A DNA stretch of 11,936 bases. It comes from a virus (lineage: Duplodnaviria; Heunggongvirae; Uroviricota; Caudoviricetes). The position numbers and the translations under genes are program-made. Of the stretch, positions 535-11,936 are shown piece by piece. The stretch is taken from positions 1 through 11,936 of IMG/VR virus record IMGVR_UViG_2681813004_000015, one strand, 5' to 3'. Numbering within the stretch: the first letter of the stretch is position 1; each line of letters begins with the position of its first letter. Under the pieces are notes generated by a model that saw nothing but the letters and a program-made list of their open reading frames with translations, ran no database searches and was not told where the DNA came from.

Positions 535-885
535 ATGCCATCACTAATCCCACGTGCCTGCCGTAAGCGTGGATGTGCAGGTACAACCACAGACAGTTCT
601 GGTTACTGCGATAAACATCGTGGCGAAGGATGGGTACAGCATCAACGCGGACTGAGTCGCCACCAGCGTGGCTATGGCTCGAAATGGGATGCCATACGTG
701 CGCGCATACTGAAGCGTGATAATCATCTGTGTCAGAACTGCCTGCGCAATGGGAGAGCCGTTGAAGCCAGAACTGTGGACCACATCATTCCGAAAGCTCA
801 TGGTGGCACGGATGCAGACAGTAACCTGCAGAGTCTGTGCTGGCCCTGCCATAAAGCAAAAACAGCGCGCGAACGCATCAATTGA
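535..885 (+). CDS. HNH endonuclease (phage packaging-associated)
   Basis: Cys pairs (CRKRGC, CQNC, CWPCH) plus H-N-H core (DHIIPKAHGG...N...CWPCH). GAGG RBS ~6 nt upstream of ATG. Position directly upstream of terS is typical of HK97-like packaging modules. Confidence 0.88.
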   Translation: MPSLIPRACRKRGCAGTTTDSSGYCDKHRGEGWVQHQRGLSRHQRGYGSKWDAIRARILKRDNHLCQNCLRNGRAVEARTVDHIIPKAHGGTDADSNLQSLCWPCHKAKTARERIN

Positions 886-1031
886 TAACAGTTCCCATCT
901 GTAGGGGAGGGGCGGGTCAAATCTCTGCAGCCCTGGCTGCTCAGTACCGCCGCCTGACCTTTCCTCGCATCGCCGCAGGTTCGAAAACTTTTTTGGAAAT
1001 GTGAACAAACGATTGATAGGTAAGACCGATT

Positions 1032-1514
1032 ATGTCAGGACCCCCGAAAACCCCGCCACGCCTGCATTTGATACGAGGCAACCCCTCAAAGCGCCCCGTT
1101 AAAGACCCCAAAAAAACCGCTAAAAAGGATGAAAAAGGTCTTCCTAAAATTCCGCAGCATTTAGGGGCACAGGGGAAGTACTGGTTCAGGCGAATGGCGG
1201 AAGAGCTGAATGCGGAAGGGATCATTTCTCAGCTTGATGCGCGTGCGCTCGAGTTACTGGTGGAAGCCTACACCGAATATCGGCATCACTGCGAAACACT
1301 GGATGTTGAGGGGTATACCTATCGCACGGAAACGCAGAGTGGTGATGTACTGATTAAGGCGCACCCCGCGGCGGCAATGAAAGCGGATGCCTGGAAGCGG
1401 ATCCGGGCGATGCTTGCAGAGTTTGGTATGTCACCGGCAAGCCGGGCGAAAGTAAATACCACCGGACCGGATGATGTTGATCCGCTGGCGGAGCTTTTAA
1501 AAGCGAGAGACTGA
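1032..1514 (+). CDS. terS: terminase small subunit (P27-family-like)
   Basis: 160-aa product with basic N-terminus and the conserved middle region of P27-type small terminases. Stop overlaps the terL start (TGATG, 1512-1516), indicating translational coupling. Confidence 0.8.
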   Translation: MSGPPKTPPRLHLIRGNPSKRPVKDPKKTAKKDEKGLPKIPQHLGAQGKYWFRRMAEELNAEGIISQLDARALELLVEAYTEYRHHCETLDVEGYTYRTETQSGDVLIKAHPAAAMKADAWKRIRAMLAEFGMSPASRAKVNTTGPDDVDPLAELLKARD

Positions 1515-2707
1515 TGGCAAAAGTGGCTGACGGGATCCGCTACGCCGAACGTGTTGTTGCAGGAGAAATTGTCGCTGGCGAATTTGTCCGTCTGGCCTGC
1601 CAGCGTTTTCTTGATGATCTGAAGTACGGCGAAGAGCGGGGGATTTATTTCAGTGAACCCCGTGCGCAGCACATCCTGAATTTCTACAAATTTGTGCCCC
1701 ATGTAAAAGGGGCGCTGGCAGGTCAGCCCATTGAGTTGATGGACTGGCATGTTTTTATCCTCATAAATATTTTTGGTTTTGTCATTCCGCTGGTGAATGA
1801 AGAGACCGGGGAAGTTGTCATGCGCAGCGATGGCAGCGGACGCCCGGTGATGGTGCGCCGGTTCCGGACGGCGTACAACGAAGTCGCCCGTAAAAACGCA
1901 AAATCAACCCTGTCATCGGGTATCGGTCTTTATATGACGGGGGCAGATGGTGAAGGCGGTGCTGAGGTGTATTCAGCCGCAACCACGCGTGACCAGGCCA
2001 GAATCGTGTTTGAAGACGCCAAAAATATGGTCAGAAAAGCCCGGTCGACACTCGGGCGGTTGTTTGATTTCAACAAGCTGGCGATTTACCAGGAGCAGAG
2101 CGCATCAAAATTTGAACCGCTTTCCTCGGATGCAAACAACCTGGACGGTCTGAACATCCACTGCGCCATTATTGATGAGCTGCATGCACATAAAACCCGC
2201 GACGTGTGGGACGTTCTGGAAACGGCAACCGGTGCCCGTCTGCAGTCCCTGTTATTTGGTATCACCACGGCGGGCTTTAACAAGGAAGGAATTTGTTACG
2301 AGCAACGCGATTACGCCATCAAGGTATTGCGAGGCTATAACAGTGACGTGGAGGGCGCGGTAAAAGACGACTCCTACTTTGCGATTATTTACACGCTCGA
2401 TGAGGGAGATGATCCGTTTGATGAAACGGTCTGGCAGAAAGCGAATCCGGGCCTGGGCATCTGTAAACGCTGGGATGATCTGCGTCGTCTGGCGAAAAAA
2501 GCGAAGGAACAGGTTTCAGCGCGGGTGAATTTTTTTACCAAGAAAGTAACATCACGCCGTAACAACAGTGCGACCTGTCCTGATTTTTTTAGTAACCAAA
2601 TGAAAGAAAAAGATTTTTTCTTGTTCGTCGTTTTTGTTTTTTCTGGAAGGTTCTGGCTGTTTTCATCATTTGTGTATTGCACTGTGTATTGCAAAAACGG
2701 GTTATAA
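1514..2707 (+). pseudogene. terL: terminase large subunit, 3'-truncated: ATPase domain only, terminase-like to about nt 2545
   Basis: N-terminal ~345 aa read as an HK97-family TerL ATPase domain. After ...ARVNFFTKK the frame runs through T-rich low-complexity codons (FFLFVVFVF...) into the int upstream region. No nuclease domain is present. Confidence 0.8.
2671..2693. repeat. two direct copies of TGTGTATTGCA separated by 1 nt, 20 bp upstream of int
   Basis: Exact 11-mer at 2671-2681 and 2683-2693. Lies in the AT-rich segment between the terL break and int, next to a short palindrome GAAAAAGATTTTTC at ~2607-2620. Candidate integrase arm-type or regulatory sites. Confidence 0.4.
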
Positions 2708-2712
2708 ATCAC

Positions 2713-3921
2713 ATGGCGCTAAACAAACTGAGCGATAAAAAACTTCGTTCCCTGCTTGGGCGCAGGAGTGAGAGGCAGGAAACCATCGCTGATGGTAACG
2801 GGCTTTCGGTACGGGTCAGTAAATACGGATGTGTTAGTTTTGTTTTCTTTTACAGACTGGCGGGAAGGGGAACCGCGCCCATCTGGCTGACACTTGGAAA
2901 ATATCCTGATCTGAGTCTCAAATCAGCGAGAGAGATGCGCGATCAGTGTCGAACCTGGCTTGCGGAGGGCAGAGATCCACGGATTCAGATAAAAATTGAA
3001 CGGGAAGCCACTTTGCAACCTGTTACCGTTCGTGAGGCACTTGAATACTGGCTTGATAATTATGCAATGGATAAGCGTAGGGGAGCAGAACATATCAGGC
3101 AGTGCTTTGGTAAACATATTTATCCGGTGATTGGTCATGTACCACTTAGTGATTGCTCTATATCTATGTGGATCAAGTGTTTTGACAAAATAAAAAAAGT
3201 AGCACCTGTACAGGCCGGAGCTTTGTTGCGTATATCAAAACAGGCGCTTAAATTTTGTAGGGTAAGAAAATACGCGATTAGTCATGAAATTGATGATCTT
3301 GAGGTCTGTGATGTGGGAAAAAAGTCTGCGCGAAGAAGCAGGGTTTTAACAGATGATGAAATCAGAGATTTATGGCGAAGTATTAATACTGATTATGACA
3401 ATCACGAATTATCATATGAAAACCGAATTATTTTACGTTTCCTGGTAGTTTTTGGTTGTCGACTGTCAGAAGTATTACTGTCGTCCTGGGTAGAGTGGGA
3501 TTTTGATAAGAAATTATGGCGCGTTCCCGCTGATCATAGCAAAAATGGCAGGGAAATAATCAGACCGATTCCTGATGGCATGTTTAACTGGTTAGTTACG
3601 TTAAAAAAAATAACAGGTAACAAAGAAAATGTGATTGGGTTTGATATGCGTCAGTGTACGGCAAGCGTAACTATCGGTAAGACATGGAAAAGGATGAAAC
3701 ACTCGGAAAAATGGACGGCGCATGATATGCGAAGAGTGTTTGCCACAAAGCTAAGTGATCATGGTTTTGAACATAATGTGGTTGAACAGTTGCTTGGGCA
3801 CACATTAGGCGGTGTTGCCGGGGTTTATAACAGAAGTCAGTATATGGACAGAAAAAAAGAAGCTATGAACTGGTGGTACGACTATCTGAATAAGCTAATT
3901 AGTGGTGACGGTAATGATTGA
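2713..3921 (+). CDS. int: tyrosine integrase, P4-integrase family
   Basis: N-terminal arm-binding domain pattern (GLSVRVSKYG...FVFFYRL...LTLGKYPDLSLKSAREMR) and C-terminal catalytic residues (R...HDMRR...LLGH...Y). ATG at 2713 (MALNKLSD) preferred over the upstream ATG at 2677. Confidence 0.92.
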   Translation: MALNKLSDKKLRSLLGRRSERQETIADGNGLSVRVSKYGCVSFVFFYRLAGRGTAPIWLTLGKYPDLSLKSAREMRDQCRTWLAEGRDPRIQIKIEREATLQPVTVREALEYWLDNYAMDKRRGAEHIRQCFGKHIYPVIGHVPLSDCSISMWIKCFDKIKKVAPVQAGALLRISKQALKFCRVRKYAISHEIDDLEVCDVGKKSARRSRVLTDDEIRDLWRSINTDYDNHELSYENRIILRFLVVFGCRLSEVLLSSWVEWDFDKKLWRVPADHSKNGREIIRPIPDGMFNWLVTLKKITGNKENVIGFDMRQCTASVTIGKTWKRMKHSEKWTAHDMRRVFATKLSDHGFEHNVVEQLLGHTLGGVAGVYNRSQYMDRKKEAMNWWYDYLNKLISGDGND

Positions 3922-4135
3922 AATAGTTACGCGTGAAGAACTTGAAAATGATAAAACAATCGACAGGATGATTAAGGAAGATGAATGTGCATGGTTAACA
4001 GCTCTTGGCAGGAGACACAGAGCATTACTTGAAAAGGAAGGAAAATTTCCACGGAAAATATGTATTGGCCCACAAACAAAAGTCTGGCGCTTATCTGAGG
4101 TGCTGGAATGGGTAAAGGGTGAATGGAAACCCTGA
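3914..4135 (+). CDS. alpA: AlpA-family DNA-binding protein (excisionase/activator type)
   Basis: Small HTH protein with AlpA-like motif (LLEKEGKFPRKICIGPQTKVWRLSEVLEWV). ATG at 3914 overlaps the int 3' end by 8 nt. Followed by a hairpin terminator. Confidence 0.75.
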   Translation: MIEIVTREELENDKTIDRMIKEDECAWLTALGRRHRALLEKEGKFPRKICIGPQTKVWRLSEVLEWVKGEWKP

Positions 4136-4156
4136 ACTAAATTAAATGAGATATAA

Positions 4157-4185
4157 TCAACCCGTCTTTTGGCGGGTTTTTTTAT
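4157..4185 (+). terminator. intrinsic terminator after first alpA-like gene
   Basis: Hairpin AACCCG-loop-CGGGTT (4159-4178) followed by a T-run (TTTTTTTAT). Confidence 0.6.
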
Positions 4186-4198
4186 AGGTGATATTTTT

Positions 4199-4477
4199 AT
4201 GCAAAAATTTATTTATCCTACACCCGAAGAACGCATTCAGATTCTGAAAGAACATGGCGAACCGTATGATCGCCGTATACGCGAACATGAGTGTGCCAAT
4301 CGTACCGGGCTTTCAAGAAGCAGACGTTGGGTACTTGAACAGGAGGGAGCATTTCCTGCTCGTGCTCATTTAGGGAAAGTGTCTGTTTCCTGGTTGCTCT
4401 CTGATGTGCTCTGGTGGGTTATGCATCCGCCAGGAGTAAAGGAAGTAAACAGCCCATACAAAAACGCCAATAAGTAA
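4199..4477 (+). CDS. second AlpA-family DNA-binding protein (paralog)
   Basis: Motif LEQEGAFPARAHLGKVSVSWLLSDVLWWV parallels the upstream AlpA-like gene. ATG at 4199 has an AGGTGA RBS and lies just past the preceding terminator; the track start at 4169 falls inside the hairpin. Confidence 0.65.
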   Translation: MQKFIYPTPEERIQILKEHGEPYDRRIREHECANRTGLSRSRRWVLEQEGAFPARAHLGKVSVSWLLSDVLWWVMHPPGVKEVNSPYKNANK

Positions 4478-4486
4478 TTACCGACA

Positions 4487-4516
4487 ACCCCGCACCACGC
4501 AATGCGGGGTTTTTTG
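4487..4516 (+). terminator. intrinsic terminator after second alpA-like gene
   Basis: Stem ACCCCGCA / TGCGGGGT (4487-4494 / 4503-4510) with 8-nt loop, followed by TTTTTTG. Confidence 0.7.
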
Positions 4517-4534
4517 TATGTGAGGTAGAAAGTG

Positions 4535-5128
4535 ATGAATAAAAATATTGCCGCGACGGGCAAGGGTGACGCACGTCATATGAAAAAATTCTGTGATATT
4601 CGTGATCTGGTCGTTCTGCGCTTTGATAGTGTGAACGTTCGCGTGGTGTATCTGAACGGCGATCCGTGGTTTGTTGGCGCTGATGTGTGTGCGGCGCTGG
4701 AAATTAGCAACGTTACCGATGCTGTTTCAGTTCTGGATAGCGATGAGGTAATGACCCTAGCTTTAACCGAGGGTCATTCAGGTAAGCGTGGTGGTGCCAG
4801 AAGTTGGAATGTTGTATCAGAATCAGGTTTTTACAAGTTGATCGCCAGAAGTCGCAAAGCTGTTAATCCTGGCACGTTCGCCCATCGTTTCAGTAATTGG
4901 GTATTCAGAAATGTGATACCGGGTATCAGAAAAACGGGGGGTTATGGTATCCCGTGGGGCGCATTACAGGATTTTTCCCGCCGCAAAGAGCAATACCAGA
5001 TAAGTGCCAGCGAGAAGGGGAGGGAGCTACAGGCATGTAAGCGCAAAAAGCGTGAGCTGGAGGAAGAAGAAAAAAGGCTGATACGTGAATACCAGCCTGA
5101 GTTTTACTTTGGTGAGCGTATTCAGTAA
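4535..5128 (+). CDS. Bro-N domain protein (antirepressor-like) with C-terminal charged coiled-coil tail
   Basis: N-terminal region matches the Bro-N pattern (VRVVYLNGDPWFVGADVCAALEISNVTDAV...SGFYKLIARSRKAVNPGTFAHRFSNWVFRNVIPGIRKTGGY). GAGG RBS 9 nt upstream of ATG 4535. C-terminus is K/E-rich. Confidence 0.82.
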   Translation: MNKNIAATGKGDARHMKKFCDIRDLVVLRFDSVNVRVVYLNGDPWFVGADVCAALEISNVTDAVSVLDSDEVMTLALTEGHSGKRGGARSWNVVSESGFYKLIARSRKAVNPGTFAHRFSNWVFRNVIPGIRKTGGYGIPWGALQDFSRRKEQYQISASEKGRELQACKRKKRELEEEEKRLIREYQPEFYFGERIQ

Positions 5129-6248: not shown

Positions 6249-6453
6249 TCTGTCACTTACCGACCTTAACCGCATTCAGTTTCGTGAGAAATTTACCGGG
6301 CAGCTACTGGTCAATGTGGATAAAGGTCGCGTGGTGTGTAATTACCACCTGCCAGATGAAGCAATTGTCGCAACAAGGGAATCATTACAGGAACTCGCAG
6401 AACGTGCCGGAATGATTAATGCGAATATTCAGGGGGTGAGCCATGTGCAATAA
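6241..6453 (+). CDS. hypothetical small protein (70 aa)
   Basis: AGGAGG RBS immediately upstream of ATG 6241; overlaps the previous ORF by 8 nt and the next by 11 nt, indicating coupling. Confidence 0.55.
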   Translation: MINLSLTDLNRIQFREKFTGQLLVNVDKGRVVCNYHLPDEAIVATRESLQELAERAGMINANIQGVSHVQ

Positions 6454-6772
6454 CACCCGTCCGGACGCAGCCGCCGAAGCTATCAGAACGCTGATGCACG
6501 CGCTGATTGATATTTCATGCACGGCAGCAACCGCAGAAAAACACATTACCAGAGAGACCGAAGCTATCAGAACGCTGATGCACGCGCTGATTGATATTTC
6601 ATGCACGGCAGCAACCGCAGAAAAACACATTACCAGAGAGACGGAATATACAGGGGCAATAATCCCGCATTCGCTGGTCTACACACAGCTTACCGCTGAT
6701 ATGGCGCTGAATGAGGCTAAAGCCATCCTGATTGCTGATTGTGAAAATGGCGGGGGCGATTATGCGAAATAA
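6443..6772 (+). CDS. hypothetical protein (109 aa) containing a 28-residue exact tandem repeat
   Basis: GGGGTGA RBS upstream of ATG 6443. Residues EAIRTLMHALIDISCTAATAEKHITRET occur twice in tandem, encoded by an 84-bp direct repeat. Confidence 0.55.
   Translation: MCNNTRPDAAAEAIRTLMHALIDISCTAATAEKHITRETEAIRTLMHALIDISCTAATAEKHITRETEYTGAIIPHSLVYTQLTADMALNEAKAILIADCENGGGDYAK
6476..6643 (+). repeat. 84-bp tandem direct repeat, two copies, in-frame within a small ORF
   Basis: 6476-6559 and 6560-6643 are identical except for the final base (83/84). Confidence 0.95.
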
Positions 6773-6980
6773 ACATGATATTGAAGACCTGGCATTTGAA
6801 GCCCTGCACTCTGCGAAAAAAATCAGGGAAGTCGTCAATATGTGGATGAACAGCCTTAGCACCGATAAATCCGATAGCAGAGAAGAAATTCTTATTTCTT
6901 TGTTGTTAGACCTGGCAAATACACAGGTTTCTCTGACATCTGATATTGAGCTCGCCGCTAAAAAGCTGCCTCTGGAGTAA
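6762..6980 (+). CDS. hypothetical small protein (~72 aa)
   Basis: ATG 6762 with G-rich RBS; overlaps the stop of the preceding ORF. The track ORF starts earlier at 6732, so the start is uncertain. Confidence 0.45.
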   Translation: MRNKHDIEDLAFEALHSAKKIREVVNMWMNSLSTDKSDSREEILISLLLDLANTQVSLTSDIELAAKKLPLE

Positions 6981-6986
6981 AAAAAC

Positions 6987-7301
6987 ATGAAAAAGAAAAA
7001 TTCTGGCTTTACTGCCAGCGGTCACGCTCGGCCTGAAATCCGCCCCGGTGATATTTTCCGGGATAAATACGGCAGCACGATAACGATTAAAACCGTCGAT
7101 GATTTTCGTGTGACCTATATCCGCGAAGGTTATGCGCATCCCTGCGTGTCGTCACATATGCGCTTTGACAGGGAGTTCACCTTGGTAAGCAAAGCACCAC
7201 CAGCAGAATTAAGCGACATCGACAGAATCATGCGCGTTACAGGAATGGAACGCATTAAGGCAGTACGTGAAATTATTCGTGAACGGGGAAAGGCAAAATG
7301 A
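6987..7301 (+). CDS. hypothetical protein (104 aa), translationally coupled to the replication protein gene
   Basis: GGAG RBS upstream of ATG 6987; its stop overlaps the start of the downstream 707-aa gene (ATGA at 7298-7301). Confidence 0.55.
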   Translation: MKKKNSGFTASGHARPEIRPGDIFRDKYGSTITIKTVDDFRVTYIREGYAHPCVSSHMRFDREFTLVSKAPPAELSDIDRIMRVTGMERIKAVREIIRERGKAK

Positions 7302-9421
7302 AGCGCGCACCAAACTTAAAGCACCAGCCAGCCGACAAAATGACGGAGGTTATCATCTTTGCGGGTAGTGATGCGTGGAGCCATGCGAAAGAGTGGCAGG
7401 AATGGGCAGGTAAACATATTGCCGCCGACAATGTGCCGCCTGTCGTTCTGTCAGATGAACACCTGAAAGATATTACTGGTTATCAAATTATTGATGATAG
7501 CCGTCAGTGTGTGCGTATTTACCGCGCAGGGCACATCACTGAACGTAGCCTCACACAGATCGTCACGTTGCTGGCTGTGGCTGGCGTGAAGACCGTATAC
7601 GAATACGCGGGGATAACTGACACCAGCCCGGCGGATTTATCCGACCAGTTGCCTCGCCTCAAAGACGAATACGAGCGCGGGGAAAGTCTGGTGTTGCCCT
7701 TAAAGAAAAAAATCACAGAAAGCCCGGGTGATGATGAATTAAAGCCCCGCGTTGAAAGCCGCGCCGATGGTGTTTTCTGGGTAACGCCAAAAGTGGATAA
7801 GCAGTCAGGCGAAATTATCCGGCCTGAAACGTGGTTATGCTCCCCGCTTGAGCTACTGGGAACGGGGACAATCGGCAAAGAGCATTACCGCGTGATGCGC
7901 TGGAAAAAGCCAGCAAACCATGACGTCATCACGATGGCGGTTCCGTGCGGTGGCATTGGCGACCGTGACGGCTGGCGGCTGCTGAAAGACCACGGACTGA
8001 ACGTGACAACCAACGGTAAATACAGGGCTATCCTGGCTGACTGGATGCAGTTAAGCGGAAACCATGAGGAATGGCAGTTAAGCACAACAACGGGCTGGCA
8101 TTTTGGCGCGTACATCATGCCGGACGGTTCGGTCATTGGTGATTGCGAAAAGCCAGTCCTGTTTACCGGAAAAACGGCTGCCGTTAATGGTTATTCCGTG
8201 GCAGGAACGGCGGAGGGCTGGCGCGATACCGTGGCGCGACTGGCTGGTGGTAATCCGTCCATGATGCTGGGTGTGGCGGTATCGCTATCCGCACCATTAA
8301 TCGGGCTGGTGGGTGCTGACGGCTTCGGGGTACATCTTTTCGAACAGTCATCAGCAGGGAAAACCACCACACAGAATATCGCATCCAGTTTATGGGGGGA
8401 GCCGGACGCGCAGCGGCTGACCTGGTACGGTACAGCGTTAGGTATCGCCAACGAGGCAGAGGCACACAACGACGGGCTGTTACCCCTGGATGAAATAGGC
8501 CAGGCCGGAAACGCGCGGGAGGTGTCCACATCGGCCTATACGCTGTTTAACGGTTCCGGGAAATTACAGGGGGCGAAGGACGGCGGCAACCGGGAGATAA
8601 AACACTGGCGAACGGTGGCAATCAGTACCGGAGAAATGGACGTTGAAACATTCCTCAAAACGGAAGGGATAAAAGTCAAGGCGGGGCAGCTTGTCCGCCT
8701 GCTTAACGTGCCAATGGAAAAAGCCACACAATTTCACGAATACAGCACCGGAAAGGCGCACGCAGACGCGTTAAAGGATGCCTGGACAGAAAATCACGGG
8801 GCGGCGGGGCGTGAATGGGTTAAATGGCTGGCAGACCATCAGCAGGAGGCAAAGGACACGGTAAGGACATGCCGTGAGCGGTGGCGCAACCTGATACCGG
8901 AGAGCTACGGCGAACAGGTTCACCGTGTGGGGGAGCGATTTGCCATACTGGAGGCCGCGCTTGTGCTTTCAGGTCATGTTACTGGCTGGGATGAGCAGGA
9001 ATGCCGCGATGCCATACAGCATAATTTTAATGCCTGGGTGAAGGAGTTCGGCACGGGTAACAGGGAGTTTAAACAGATGGTTGAACAGGCAGAGGCTTTT
9101 TTAGCGTCGTTCGGATTCAGCAGATACCTTCCGTGGCCCAACACCGACGAGCGTGATTTACCGATTAAAGAGCTTGCCGGATACAGAAAGGGGAGTATCA
9201 GAAACGAAGATGACGAGTTCCGTTTTTACACGTTCCCGCATGTATTTGAGGGTGAGATAGCACAGGGATTTAATCCGTCTCACTTTGCCCGCGTGTTGAG
9301 TGCTGCCGGAATGCTGGAAGCGGGTAACGATCGCCGTTACAAGAAAAAGGCGCTCGGCAAAATTGGGGGGAAGCAGCATGTTTTTTACGTGCTGATGTTC
9401 CAGCCTGAGGCAGAAGATTAA
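7298..9421 (+). CDS. replication protein: P-loop NTPase of the DUF927 / primase-helicase type (PICI pri-rep-like)
   Basis: 707-aa ORF with Walker A (FEQSSAGKTT) and Walker B (GLLPLDEIGQ) motifs. General resemblance to DUF927-type replicative helicase/primase proteins of satellites and plasmids. Immediately followed by iterons. Confidence 0.8.
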   Translation: MKRAPNLKHQPADKMTEVIIFAGSDAWSHAKEWQEWAGKHIAADNVPPVVLSDEHLKDITGYQIIDDSRQCVRIYRAGHITERSLTQIVTLLAVAGVKTVYEYAGITDTSPADLSDQLPRLKDEYERGESLVLPLKKKITESPGDDELKPRVESRADGVFWVTPKVDKQSGEIIRPETWLCSPLELLGTGTIGKEHYRVMRWKKPANHDVITMAVPCGGIGDRDGWRLLKDHGLNVTTNGKYRAILADWMQLSGNHEEWQLSTTTGWHFGAYIMPDGSVIGDCEKPVLFTGKTAAVNGYSVAGTAEGWRDTVARLAGGNPSMMLGVAVSLSAPLIGLVGADGFGVHLFEQSSAGKTTTQNIASSLWGEPDAQRLTWYGTALGIANEAEAHNDGLLPLDEIGQAGNAREVSTSAYTLFNGSGKLQGAKDGGNREIKHWRTVAISTGEMDVETFLKTEGIKVKAGQLVRLLNVPMEKATQFHEYSTGKAHADALKDAWTENHGAAGREWVKWLADHQQEAKDTVRTCRERWRNLIPESYGEQVHRVGERFAILEAALVLSGHVTGWDEQECRDAIQHNFNAWVKEFGTGNREFKQMVEQAEAFLASFGFSRYLPWPNTDERDLPIKELAGYRKGSIRNEDDEFRFYTFPHVFEGEIAQGFNPSHFARVLSAAGMLEAGNDRRYKKKALGKIGGKQHVFYVLMFQPEAED

Positions 9422-10057: not shown

Positions 10058-10072
10058 GCAGTGAGGTACAGC

Positions 10073-10354
10073 ATGATTAAAGACAGCAAAGCGGAAGAAC
10101 TGGAGGCTAAAGGGCTGTACCGGAGAGCGGCGGCACGTTGGGCTGATGTTATGTGGCTGGTGAGCACTGACAAGGAGCGCGAACAAGTGGCAAAGCGTCG
10201 CGCGGAATGTATCCGTAAGGCAGCGCGCCAACCAGTCATACCGGATAATTTCGGAATACTGAAAGAGGCCATAAACCGCACACATACCGGGATGGGCTTA
10301 CAGAAACCTGGCGGTGAGATGTTCAGGAACTACCCGAAAAAAAGGGATAATTGA
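10073..10354 (+). CDS. perC: PerC-family transcriptional regulator (Pch-like)
   Basis: N-terminus MIKDSKAEELEAKGLYRRAAARWADVM... matches the PerC/Pch signature. GAGG RBS 6 nt upstream of ATG 10073; the track start at 10061 is GTG. Confidence 0.75.
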   Translation: MIKDSKAEELEAKGLYRRAAARWADVMWLVSTDKEREQVAKRRAECIRKAARQPVIPDNFGILKEAINRTHTGMGLQKPGGEMFRNYPKKRDN

Positions 10355-10399
10355 TAACGGTTGTTAACTGTTTCTGGTATCGTGGCAGCAGGAGGAAAC

Positions 10400-10648
10400 A
10401 TGCCAGTGACATTTGAAGAAGTCCAGCAACATAAAAAGTTTCATGGTTTTGATGATCTGGAAACCACGACAGCAAAAAAATATCGCCGTCTGCTTTCTTC
10501 CGATGCGTTGTTTGTTGTGGATCATCATGATTTTCTGCGCAGCTCACTGACCGGGGAAATTTTCGCAACCAACCGTGAGCAGGTGGAAGCGATGATCGAA
10601 TATCTGTGGAAAATAAGGCGCAGAATGCGTGATCCCGTGAAACGGTAG
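10400..10648 (+). CDS. hypothetical small protein (82 aa) downstream of perC
   Basis: Strong AGGAGG RBS 3 nt upstream of ATG 10400; followed by a strong terminator. A second near-identical copy lies at 11165-11413. Confidence 0.6.
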   Translation: MPVTFEEVQQHKKFHGFDDLETTTAKKYRRLLSSDALFVVDHHDFLRSSLTGEIFATNREQVEAMIEYLWKIRRRMRDPVKR

Positions 10649-10652
10649 AATA

Positions 10653-10687
10653 ATAATGGCCTGGTATTTTCCAGGCCATTATTTTTA
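10653..10687. terminator. strong bidirectional intrinsic terminator
   Basis: Perfect 10-bp stem AATGGCCTGG / CCAGGCCATT (10655-10664 / 10671-10680), loop TATTTT, T-run downstream and A-rich tract upstream. Confidence 0.75.
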
Positions 10688-10735
10688 GAAGTGTTGCTGA
10701 ATGAACATTGCTTTTTTCAGTTCATTTTCTGACAT
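10685..10735 (-). pseudogene. remnant of the 157-aa minus-strand gene: first 14 codons only, then deletion junction
   Basis: 10693-10749 matches 11880-11936, which holds the RBS and first codons (MSENELKKAMFIQQ) of the intact gene at 11449-11922. Here the frame ends after 16 codons at the junction with the terminator. Confidence 0.7.
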
Positions 10736-10809
10736 AGTTCGTTCCTCCTGATTAACGAGCAGAAAATGTACGGAACAGCTTATTTATTTTTTCAGGTTTT
10801 GTAAATTAT

Positions 10810-10839
10810 TTGTTCGTGGTTGTTCCAGGTTGTTCACTG
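10810..10839. repeat. three helically phased TTGTTC repeats (10-bp period)
   Basis: TTGTTCGTGG / TTGTTCCAGG / TTGTTCACTG at 10810, 10820 and 10830. On the minus strand they sit just upstream of a TTTACA -35-like hexamer in the leader of the 157-aa gene. Confidence 0.45.
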
Positions 10840-10896
10840 AGCGGATCGGCATATTTTACCCGAACTGAATCATGATTATTCTCGCCCGTGGTGCCA

Positions 10897-11119
10897 GGAC
10901 GTTTGGGCTGATGTTATGTGGCTGGTGAGCACTGACAAGGAGCGCGAACAAGTGGCAAAGCGTCGCGCGGAATGTATCCGTAAGGCAGCACGCCCACCAG
11001 TCATACCGGATAATTTCGGAATACTGAAAGAGGCCATAAACCGCACACATACCGGGATGGGCTTACAGAAACCTGGCGGTGAGATGTTCAGGAACTACCC
11101 GAAAAAAAGGGATAATTGA
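10897..11119 (+). pseudogene. 5'-truncated second copy of perC (lacks first ~21 codons, RBS and start)
   Basis: Homology to perC begins at the codon for ARWADVM. Upstream is unrelated sequence with a 1-nt insertion at the junction. Longest ORF is the internal-Met fragment 10916-11119, which carries one substitution versus copy A (Q to P). Confidence 0.7.
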
Positions 11120-11164
11120 TAACGGTTGTTAACTGTTTCTGGTATCGTGGCAGCAGGAGGAAAC

Positions 11165-11413
11165 ATGCCAGTGACATTTGAAGAAGTCCAGCAACATAAA
11201 AAGTTTCATGGTTTTGATGATCTGGAAACCACGACAGCAAAAAAATATCGCCGTCTGCTTTCTTCCGATGCGTTGTTTGTTGTGGATCATAATGATTTTC
11301 TGCGCAGCTCACTGACCGGGGAAATTTTCGCAACCAACCGTGAGCAGGTGGAAGCGATGATCGAATATCTGTGGAAAATAAGGCGCAGAATGCGTGATCC
11401 CGTGAAACGGTAG
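11165..11413 (+). CDS. hypothetical small protein (82 aa), second copy
   Basis: Same RBS and ORF as 10400-10648 with one amino-acid difference (H to N). Confidence 0.6.
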   Translation: MPVTFEEVQQHKKFHGFDDLETTTAKKYRRLLSSDALFVVDHNDFLRSSLTGEIFATNREQVEAMIEYLWKIRRRMRDPVKR

Positions 11414-11417
11414 AATA

Positions 11418-11451
11418 ATAATGGCCTGGTATTTTCCAGGCCATTTTTTTA
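11418..11451. terminator. strong bidirectional intrinsic terminator, second copy
   Basis: Stem AATGGCCTGG / CCAGGCCATT (11420-11429 / 11436-11445), loop TATTTT, T-run 11444-11450. Serves the converging genes on both strands. Confidence 0.75.
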
Positions 11452-11922
11452 GAAGTCGATCTCTGTATCGCGATTAAATTCATCGCTAAGGTAAAGTGCT
11501 TCGCTTGGGCATTTTCCGTTTTCCAGTAATGTTTCCCAGAAATCTTTATCGAAACACCCCTCAAGATACAGATAGCGGCAGATGTGAAGTAAATCACTTC
11601 GTGTCCATCCGTGCATGCTGCTACTTGTTACACCATATTCACTTTCTAGTTTATAGAATGTGAGCGCCTCCCGGTCATGCCAGGCTTTGCACAGACGATC
11701 GTATATCTTTTTAGCTTTGTTTTTAGATGTGCCGAAAAACTCTTCGTAAATTTCATGTGGGCGAGTAGGAATGCTTCCGTCGCCATCCTGCAAGAAAGGA
11801 TAAACATCTGCCTCCCAGGCATACACGTAAGAATCGCTGAACTCATCATAGTGTTTACCAAGGTGGAGAATCTGCAATCGTTGCTGAATGAACATTGCTT
11901 TTTTCAGTTCATTTTCTGACAT
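11449..11922 (-). CDS. hypothetical acidic, aromatic-rich protein (157 aa), function unknown
   Basis: Minus-strand ORF with AGGAGG RBS (plus 11931-11936) 8 nt upstream of ATG (11922). Converges on the bidirectional terminator. Rich in D/E and Y/F/W. No family recognised by eye. Confidence 0.7.
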   Translation of the reverse strand: MSENELKKAMFIQQRLQILHLGKHYDEFSDSYVYAWEADVYPFLQDGDGSIPTRPHEIYEEFFGTSKNKAKKIYDRLCKAWHDREALTFYKLESEYGVTSSSMHGWTRSDLLHICRYLYLEGCFDKDFWETLLENGKCPSEALYLSDEFNRDTEIDF

Positions 11923-11936
11923 AGTTCGTTCCTCCT

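Follow-up and report, generated by a model that had tools for sequence, protein, structure and literature searches.

Following the Acr-Aca principle, anti-defence proteins are fused to or paired with autorepressors. The PanA domain comprises about 100–150 aa, is helical, and is often located behind a DNA-binding domain. Panacea (PanA, DUF4065) is the neutralising domain of modular antitoxins (Kurata et al., PNAS 2022, PMC8832971; NetFlax, PMC10440598). Genes for tail assembly inhibition (Tai), e.g. orf63 of phi80, are carried by PICIs, P4-like satellites, and phages, and both DefenseFinder and PADLOC were blind to Tai at the time of the corresponding study (He et al., Nat Commun 2024, PMC11364771). 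Capsid-forming PICIs (cf-PICIs) are recently recognised, widespread satellites, and little of what their variable regions contain has been explored.

Here, we analysed a gene of one such variable region, located at the end of a viral DNA stretch of 11,936 nt (IMG/VR record IMGVR_UViG_2681813004_000015; the whole stretch is referred to as the window). Its product, a 157-aa acidic protein that is predicted to be all-helical, is called X throughout. X is the most conserved occupant found here of the slot adjoining the cf-PICI capsid operon.

Results

The window as part of a cf-PICI

The window (Table 1) represents the left half of a cf-PICI. Its last 2.5 kb match E. coli chromosomes at 98%, and the X coding sequence is that of WP_001293446.1 of E. 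coli ETEC1749, with a DNA identity of 99.4%. The ETEC1749 island is ordered integrase, two AlpA-type regulators, BRO-N, Icd-like, DUF4222, DUF927 primase, SSB, PerC, an 82-aa ORF, and X on the opposite strand, followed by major capsid, prohead protease, portal, connector, HNH, TerS, and TerL. X is the final gene before the packaging module, and its transcription points away from the capsid operon. The integrase, AlpA-type regulators, primase, SSB, perC, and the capsid-to-TerL module are shared with the known cf-PICIs (paper of 2025).

The whole island sits within terL of an HK97-like prophage, which is thereby split (window 535–3921; ETEC1749 locus 4094–5122 and 20556–21299). Likewise, the island of E. 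coli 042 lies in terL, and several IMG/VR contigs carry terS just past the island integrase. Given that attachment sites were sought as 'never occupied by prophages' in the original cf-PICI description, a satellite that resides in and inactivates a prophage terminase gene merits attention.

Table 1 Features of the 11,936-nt window
Feature	Position	Strand	Details
HNH	535–885		window
TerS	1032–1514		window
Truncated TerL	1514–2707		window
Integrase	2677/2712–3921		window
109-aa ORF	6443–6772	+	internal direct repeat
perC copy 1, full length	10061–10354	+	PF06069, E 3e-35
Repeat copy 1 (perC 3' part, small ORF, terminator)	10135–10692	+	99.1% identical to 10899–11456
X deletion scar, copy 1	10685–10735	-	last 8 nt joined to first 43 nt of CDS
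X expression signals in copy-1 remnant	10744–10805	-	RBS 10744–10749; -10 TAAGCT 10777–10782; 17-nt spacer; -35 TTTACA 10800–10805
perC copy 2, 5'-truncated	10899–11119	+	homology begins 62 nt into gene at duplication junction
Small ORF convergent on X	11166–11413	+	82 aa from ATG; 95 aa from upstream TTG at 11126
Two-way intrinsic terminator of X and convergent small ORF	11420–11445		10-bp stem, 6 G-C pairs
X CDS	11449–11922	-	157 aa, ATG start, from ORF listing
X RBS	11931–11936	-	AGGAGG, 8 nt before ATG; window end

X is a conserved protein of no recognised family

Several properties that the initial annotation had assigned to X were borne out. It had described a well-formed gene with a strong RBS, and indeed the ATG-initiated ORF is preceded by AGGAGG and has conserved homologues. 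The dN/dS values among these range from 0.03 to 0.19 (median 0.07), demonstrating that X is a real, functional protein gene under strong purifying selection. Convergence with perC and the small ORF on a shared bidirectional terminator also held, as the intergenic hairpin was called as a terminator on both strands (approximately -18 kcal/mol with z -4 to -5 in each orientation), with a clean T-run on the plus strand and ATTATT on the minus strand. The predicted 18.7-kDa product is acidic and aromatic-rich as described (pI 4.93, net charge approximately -11; F, W, or Y at 25 of 157 positions, 16%). The claim that the gene has its own leader was only partly upheld: the window stops 14 nt upstream of the X start codon, so that the promoter of the intact copy falls outside of it, but related loci and the copy-1 remnant (10777–10805) do show a promoter.

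That the family had not been recognised was confirmed in every library tried. With the threshold relaxed to E ≤ 10, the X protein still gave no match in Pfam, NCBIfam, or PADLOC (PADLOC-DB 2.0, 5,027 models), and what PHROGs returned was noise. A sequence-profile search of the PDB was without match, and tblastn against 50,697 phage records returned nothing. AlphaFold yielded a confident, all-helical model (pLDDT 90), for which Foldseek retrieved no structural neighbour in PDB or BFVD, every E-value being above 4. An assignment to helical toxins (HEPN, Doc/Fic) was dropped for want of an Rx4-6H or Fic motif backed by a matching fold, and X displayed neither the sequence or fold match nor the extreme negative surface charge of the ArdA/Ocr DNA mimics. 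A literature search for WP_001293446 returned no papers, and X is absent from the discussion in the cf-PICI papers and from the described cf-PICI core.

An unequal repeat next to X

The annotated 'duplicated accessory module' exists in that the 99.1% repeat is real; its two copies are, however, unequal. Copy 1 comprises a full-length perC and a scar of X, copy 2 a truncated perC and the intact X gene. The scar reflects the in-frame deletion of 423 bp, after which a stub of 16 codons remains. Beyond it, copy 1 retains the RBS and promoter of X as well as some 160 nt of intergenic sequence from the capsid-proximal side, and self-comparison of the window showed that positions 10693–10749 exactly equal 11880–11936. 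At the duplication junction (around 10899–10908) the sequence jumps into perC. This arrangement would be explained either by a microhomology-mediated tandem duplication uniting two island alleles or by a chimeric assembly. An assembly artefact is unlikely: microhomology at the junction is limited to about 8 nt, and the same scar allele, up to the junction, occurs independently in the cf-PICI of E. coli TUM1886 (99.4% identity). The small ORF converging on X is also found in islands lacking X and is therefore not an X-specific partner.

A separate repeat was noted in the 109-aa ORF listed in Table 1. Within it, a 28-aa stretch, AIRTLMHALIDISCTAATAEKHITRETE, occurs twice as an exact direct repeat that is mirrored in the antisense ORF. 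This ORF has no Pfam match.

X as a predicted mobile expression cassette

In an alignment of the divergent region between X and the capsid gene (about 280 bp) from 18 cf-PICIs, promoter-like elements of the two genes stand back to back. The -35 block of the X promoter, ACAAATAATTTACAAAA, is invariant across all 18 islands, and the pattern TTTACA-17 nt-TAnnnT is conserved throughout the alignment. The same pattern recurs in a promoter variant, GATAGTTTACAAAAC, that accompanies X in a Raoultella satellite of a different type, which carries an X homologue together with about 130 nt of cf-PICI-type upstream region, promoter included. Because this unit is found in a satellite of another type, X with its predicted sigma-70-type promoter, RBS, ORF, and terminator is a mobile, self-contained expression cassette.

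The capsid-X intergenic region (copy-1 remnant 10750–10898; ETEC1749 locus 13760–14053) additionally contains blocks that are invariant across genera in the 18 islands. Among these are a 25-nt imperfect hairpin, GTGGCGGCTCACGTCTGAGTGCCAC, which would lie close to where the inferred leader of the capsid operon begins, and GACGTGAAACCAGC, which adjoins the capsid RBS. An Rfam search with the X-capsid intergenic region gave no match. The blocks may serve cf-PICIs as signals for regulation or packaging.

X is an accessory gene in a variable slot

X DNA was detected in 9 of 5,426 complete E. coli genomes, compared to 1,328 of 5,426 for the backbone segment; more than 99% of the E. coli islands with this backbone lack X, which may therefore be dispensable for the island life cycle. 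Besides X, the slot can hold an unrelated 168-aa minus-strand ORF (E. coli 042), be empty (TUM1881), or carry the deletion scar (TUM1886), and islands with an empty slot retain the conserved intergenic block. X is thus an accessory cargo gene of the cf-PICI variable region. In this respect the initial annotation, which had proposed cargo such as immunity or defence, was right about the accessory status, whereas nothing shows defence or immunity to be the function.

The slot occupant of E. coli 042, WP_001053661.1 (locus 7287–7793, minus strand, same orientation as X), has no Pfam or PADLOC match and resembles neither X nor TaiEcA, so that kinship with X was rejected. It is a second cargo gene of unassigned family in this hotspot.

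X recurs at this site. A protein homology search retrieved 19 full-length homologues of 156–158 aa (52–63% identity), all from Enterobacterales and all named hypothetical, which have 34 invariant alignment columns in common. In 30 of 36 IMG/VR loci with an X homologue, the gene occupies the same position beside the cf-PICI capsid gene, and in cf-PICIs of Serratia and Edwardsiella it is again divergent from the capsid gene, although the primase differs. X is a long-standing tenant of this slot in cf-PICIs of several genera rather than a recent random pick-up. Across islands, identity to the E. coli versions amounts to 66–77% for the capsid and 49–61% for X homologues. X divergence correlated weakly with that of capsid and TerL (Mantel r 0.25 for capsid, range 0.25–0.29 for capsid/TerL) and not with that of portal (0.01), compared to 0.83 for portal versus TerL. 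Strict co-divergence of X with the packaging module was rejected on this basis, and because of the weak tracking X alleles must have been shuffled between islands.

The constant placement of X raises the question of whether it is a satellite-intrinsic regulator of the divergent capsid/packaging promoter or of island induction, for instance an anti-activator or co-repressor, with the fusions described below as its one-protein version. Such a role would fit the back-to-back promoters with invariant blocks between them, the occupation of one slot in three genera, and the resemblance of solitary genes for fused proteins to autoregulated transcription factors. It is difficult to reconcile with islands that do without X while retaining the intergenic block, with the weak correlation to the packaging genes, and with the presence of X in P2/186-like prophages, Mu-like elements, and a satellite that lacks this capsid gene. 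Moreover, stand-alone X is an acidic protein in which no DNA-binding domain can be recognised. We consider a regulatory role improbable.

Relatives of X are fused to antitoxin-type DNA-binding domains

Profile searches extended the X family to 348 cluster representatives (about 350 clusters at 50% identity). Among approximately 170 retrieved members, 29 (~17%) carry an N-terminal extension of 40–110 aa, while ~83% stand alone. Four kinds of extension were recognised. Nineteen members show, by motif (ERxELRLD...IDxWR...SRSEAIRRL), an RHH domain that was also recognised by Pfam RHH_1, the NCBIfam NikR-type RHH, and a PHROG 'transcriptional repressor' family. Phd/YefM domains are found in four members (PhdYeFM_antitox at 36 bits in P0035, above the cut-off; NCBIfam phd_fam), MazE/AbrB domains in two (MazE_antitoxin at 28 bits in P0043; NCBIfam MazE/ChpS and doc_partner), and a winged-helix HTH_43 domain in a further two (70–76 bits). 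The extension is no longer than the DNA-binding fold itself (~45 aa), and the X core begins after a linker of 5–10 aa. Given this limited length, the X domain would substitute for the tail with which an antitoxin binds its toxin. The fused members have the architecture of a modular type II antitoxin or of a self-repressing inhibitor gene.

For the X protein of the window, no DNA-binding domain was recognised, and an HMM of the RHH extension identified no separately encoded RHH beside unfused X in the collected loci. A 59-aa ORF upstream of the X homologue in Methylobacterium was considered as an RHH partner and rejected, as it is not an RHH protein. At ETEC1749, no partner ORF was found on either side of X.

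The X domain is acidic family-wide (median pI 5.0, median net charge -7, pI below 6 in 90% of 166 members), and its near-invariant positions are occupied largely by aromatic or aliphatic residues, together with two Arg and two Glu. In searches of Pfam, NCBIfam, PHROGs, and PADLOC with 120 members, only the N-terminal DNA-binding domains were recognised and no catalytic family was matched; a single weak match to Aca2_YdiL (E 2e-4) could not be located.

Based on this architecture and on genomic context, we tentatively favour X as a stoichiometric protein inhibitor of the orphan-antitoxin or counter-defence type. The fusions to four DNA-binding classes, the family-wide acidity, the lack of an enzyme signature in any member, the strong purifying selection, and the autonomous cassette that moves as a unit between satellite types all argue for it. 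Rosetta-stone logic would also allow the reverse assignment, in which X is a latent toxin or abortive-infection effector that is restrained in cis by the fused antitoxin-like domain or stays silent until triggered. Being solitary, X resembles single-gene abortive-infection proteins, and some relatives lie in toxin-antitoxin (TA)-rich regions. However, the extensions consist of a DNA-binding fold only and offer no neutralising tail, X is acidic and devoid of catalytic or membrane motifs, and the majority of retrieved members are solitary, lacking an antitoxin and carrying a seemingly constitutive promoter. A toxic role is therefore very unlikely.

Genomic neighbourhoods of X relatives

One point against the inhibitor is that neither a conserved partner nor a cognate toxin gene adjoins X in cf-PICIs or in approximately 25 other contexts, so that the defining operon of an antitoxin is missing. 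Fused members are solitary after ruvB, beside a tRNA, or with a dprA-like gene on one side and topA on the other. Unfused members are likewise solitary between groEL and a sigma-factor gene or in a TA-rich plasmid-like region. The solitary position between housekeeping genes (RHH-X after ruvB or before topA, and the position after groEL) fits a self-contained regulator at least as well as an inhibitor. A further point against the inhibitor is that X holds the same slot in Escherichia, Serratia, and Edwardsiella cf-PICIs, a constancy not usually seen in hotspot cargo and suggestive of a role tied to satellite biology.

Other neighbourhoods are in line with the inhibitor. X relatives have TA and defence genes as neighbours and lie at mobile-element edges. 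In two metagenome-assembled genomes (MAGs), a fused member directly follows a complete DinJ-YafQ pair. Unfused X lies between gpD-like and int genes of P2/186-like prophages, in one context beside HigBA and a TIR-like gene, and at the edge of small Mu-like elements (Mor, gpT-type capsid gene) beside SIR2_2 or a protein with a DUF4238-like motif; SLFN/AlbA_2 was also among the neighbours, as was the PADLOC candidate PDC-S31 immediately upstream of X in the Raoultella satellite. The DUF4238-like N-terminal motif was recognised by eye, and PADLOC gave no match for it. Overall, the X family is enriched on mobile elements and in TA/defence neighbourhoods and is nevertheless a stand-alone unit.

Some of these loci have features of their own. 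In a cyanobacterial MAG (3261–4576) and a Melainabacteria MAG (~3310–4570), RHH-X follows DinJ(RelB)-YafQ on the same strand with gaps of 9 and 29 nt, and the three genes may form one transcription unit. The small Mu-like elements, from a marine metagenome and IMG/VR contigs, encode Mor and a gpT-type major head protein, with the X homologue at the far end and a variable gene (SIR2_2; DUF4238-like-motif protein) between Mor and the upstream genes. In one of them, MuA/MuB-like genes were also recognised by eye from ORF size and position. These elements may represent a capsid-encoding satellite type of transposable phages. The Raoultella planticola satellite has tail-fibre-like genes and no capsid module; its X homologue (8001–8474, plus strand) is located 157 nt downstream of a DUF2971 protein gene (6707–7843, plus strand) whose product matches the PADLOC candidate PDC-S31 (E 7e-29). 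The two may be a functional pair or just hotspot neighbours.

Proximity to such genes also bears on the possibility that X is a single-gene anti-phage interference factor that, similar to Tai, binds a protein that competing phages need for their structure or replication, blocks their development, and thereby protects the host of the satellite. The slot is one in which PICIs and phages carry immune genes, immune systems are expected in this variable region according to He et al. (PMC11364771), and X lies beside PDC-S31, SIR2_2, DUF4238-like-motif, or TIR-like genes in other elements. Placement and strand of phi80 orf63 are similar to those of X; an identification of X as Tai was nevertheless rejected for lack of homology to TaiEcA (phi80 orf63) or TaiPect, with hhalign of the family profile versus phi80 orf63 giving a probability of 0.1%. 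The PADLOC and phage-record searches, both without a match, also speak against interference with phages, as do the antitoxin-type fusions, which are not usual in defence effectors. In addition, a cf-PICI needs the tails of its helper, so that any tail interference would have to be very selective. Taken together, we view an anti-phage function as rather unlikely.

Discussion

Our preferred, though tentative, reading of X as a protein inhibitor would work as follows. The X cassette is an autonomous 'moron' of the cf-PICI, with a predicted sigma-70-type promoter that directs its transcription in the direction opposite to the capsid operon. It encodes a small, soluble, acidic, single-domain, all-helical protein that matches no enzyme family and has no recognisable catalytic motif. 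Expressed constitutively, this protein would be a non-enzymatic binder that engages another protein one-to-one and neutralises it. The likeliest target would be a toxic or immune effector of the host, a resident prophage, or a competing element, encoded elsewhere. The fused relatives would then be self-repressing versions of X, composed of a DNA-binding and a neutralising part. Both the domain's action as a protein-binding neutraliser and the choice of target are what we infer here from architecture and context.

In its boldest form, this inhibitor would be a structurally unprecedented, promiscuous domain acting in trans without a linked toxin, i.e. a portable antidote used by satellites, P2-like prophages, and Mu-like elements versus a toxin or immune effector of the host, a helper prophage, or a rival element, while its chromosomal relatives have become wired to four antitoxin-type DNA-binding domains. 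We regard this extended form as unlikely.

If the antitoxin-like reading is true, X bears on how satellites survive the toxins or immune systems of hosts and prophages. If X is instead a defence gene, the known single-gene systems gain a new member. In both cases, X makes an inexpensive and well-defined candidate for cloning. The element type, the presence of cargo in this region, and the modular logic of antitoxins are already known. New are the X domain family, for which no structural relatives are apparent, the repeated fusion of this domain to four antitoxin-type DNA-binding classes without a linked toxin, and its stable tenancy by the cf-PICI capsid operon.

Comparison with known systems

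Tai genes (PMC11364771) and X are both single opposite-strand cargo genes just upstream of the packaging module or downstream of pri. TaiEcA, however, is a 204-aa protein paired with an overlapping counter-defence gene, whereas no such gene adjoins X. With the Acr-Aca logic and the ArdA/Ocr DNA mimics, X has in common that these are small acidic proteins on mobile elements, and in X relatives the domain is wired to a DNA-binding domain. X differs from ArdA, Ocr, and Acr proteins in that no family match was obtained, its net charge is comparatively modest, and its fused DNA-binding domains are of antitoxin kinds.

Type II antitoxins (Phd/YefM, MazE/AbrB, and CopG/ParD-like RHH) possess the same N-terminal domains as the X relatives, in which Phd, MazE, RHH, and HTH_43 domains score above the Pfam cut-offs. 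In these antitoxins the DNA-binding domain serves autoregulation; it is absent from X of the window and present in ~17% of the retrieved family members. They are also encoded in an operon with a cognate toxin gene, whereas no toxin gene adjoins X, and the DinJ-YafQ genes beside two fused members are an already complete pair. Furthermore, the C-terminal part of a type II antitoxin is a short disordered tail, whereas X is a folded domain of 150 aa.

Panacea offers another comparison. There is no sequence relationship between the two, as none of 120 X members matched PF13274 (DUF4065) at E ≤ 0.01, and PanA is defined by a conserved two-gene operon with its toxin, in contrast to X, which has no conserved neighbour. 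Panacea resembles X as a globular domain common on mobile elements and phages, with the neutralising role being a proposal in the case of X. Should the antitoxin-like reading hold, X would be the second folded neutraliser domain with interchangeable DNA-binding domains after Panacea, and would act without a linked toxin.
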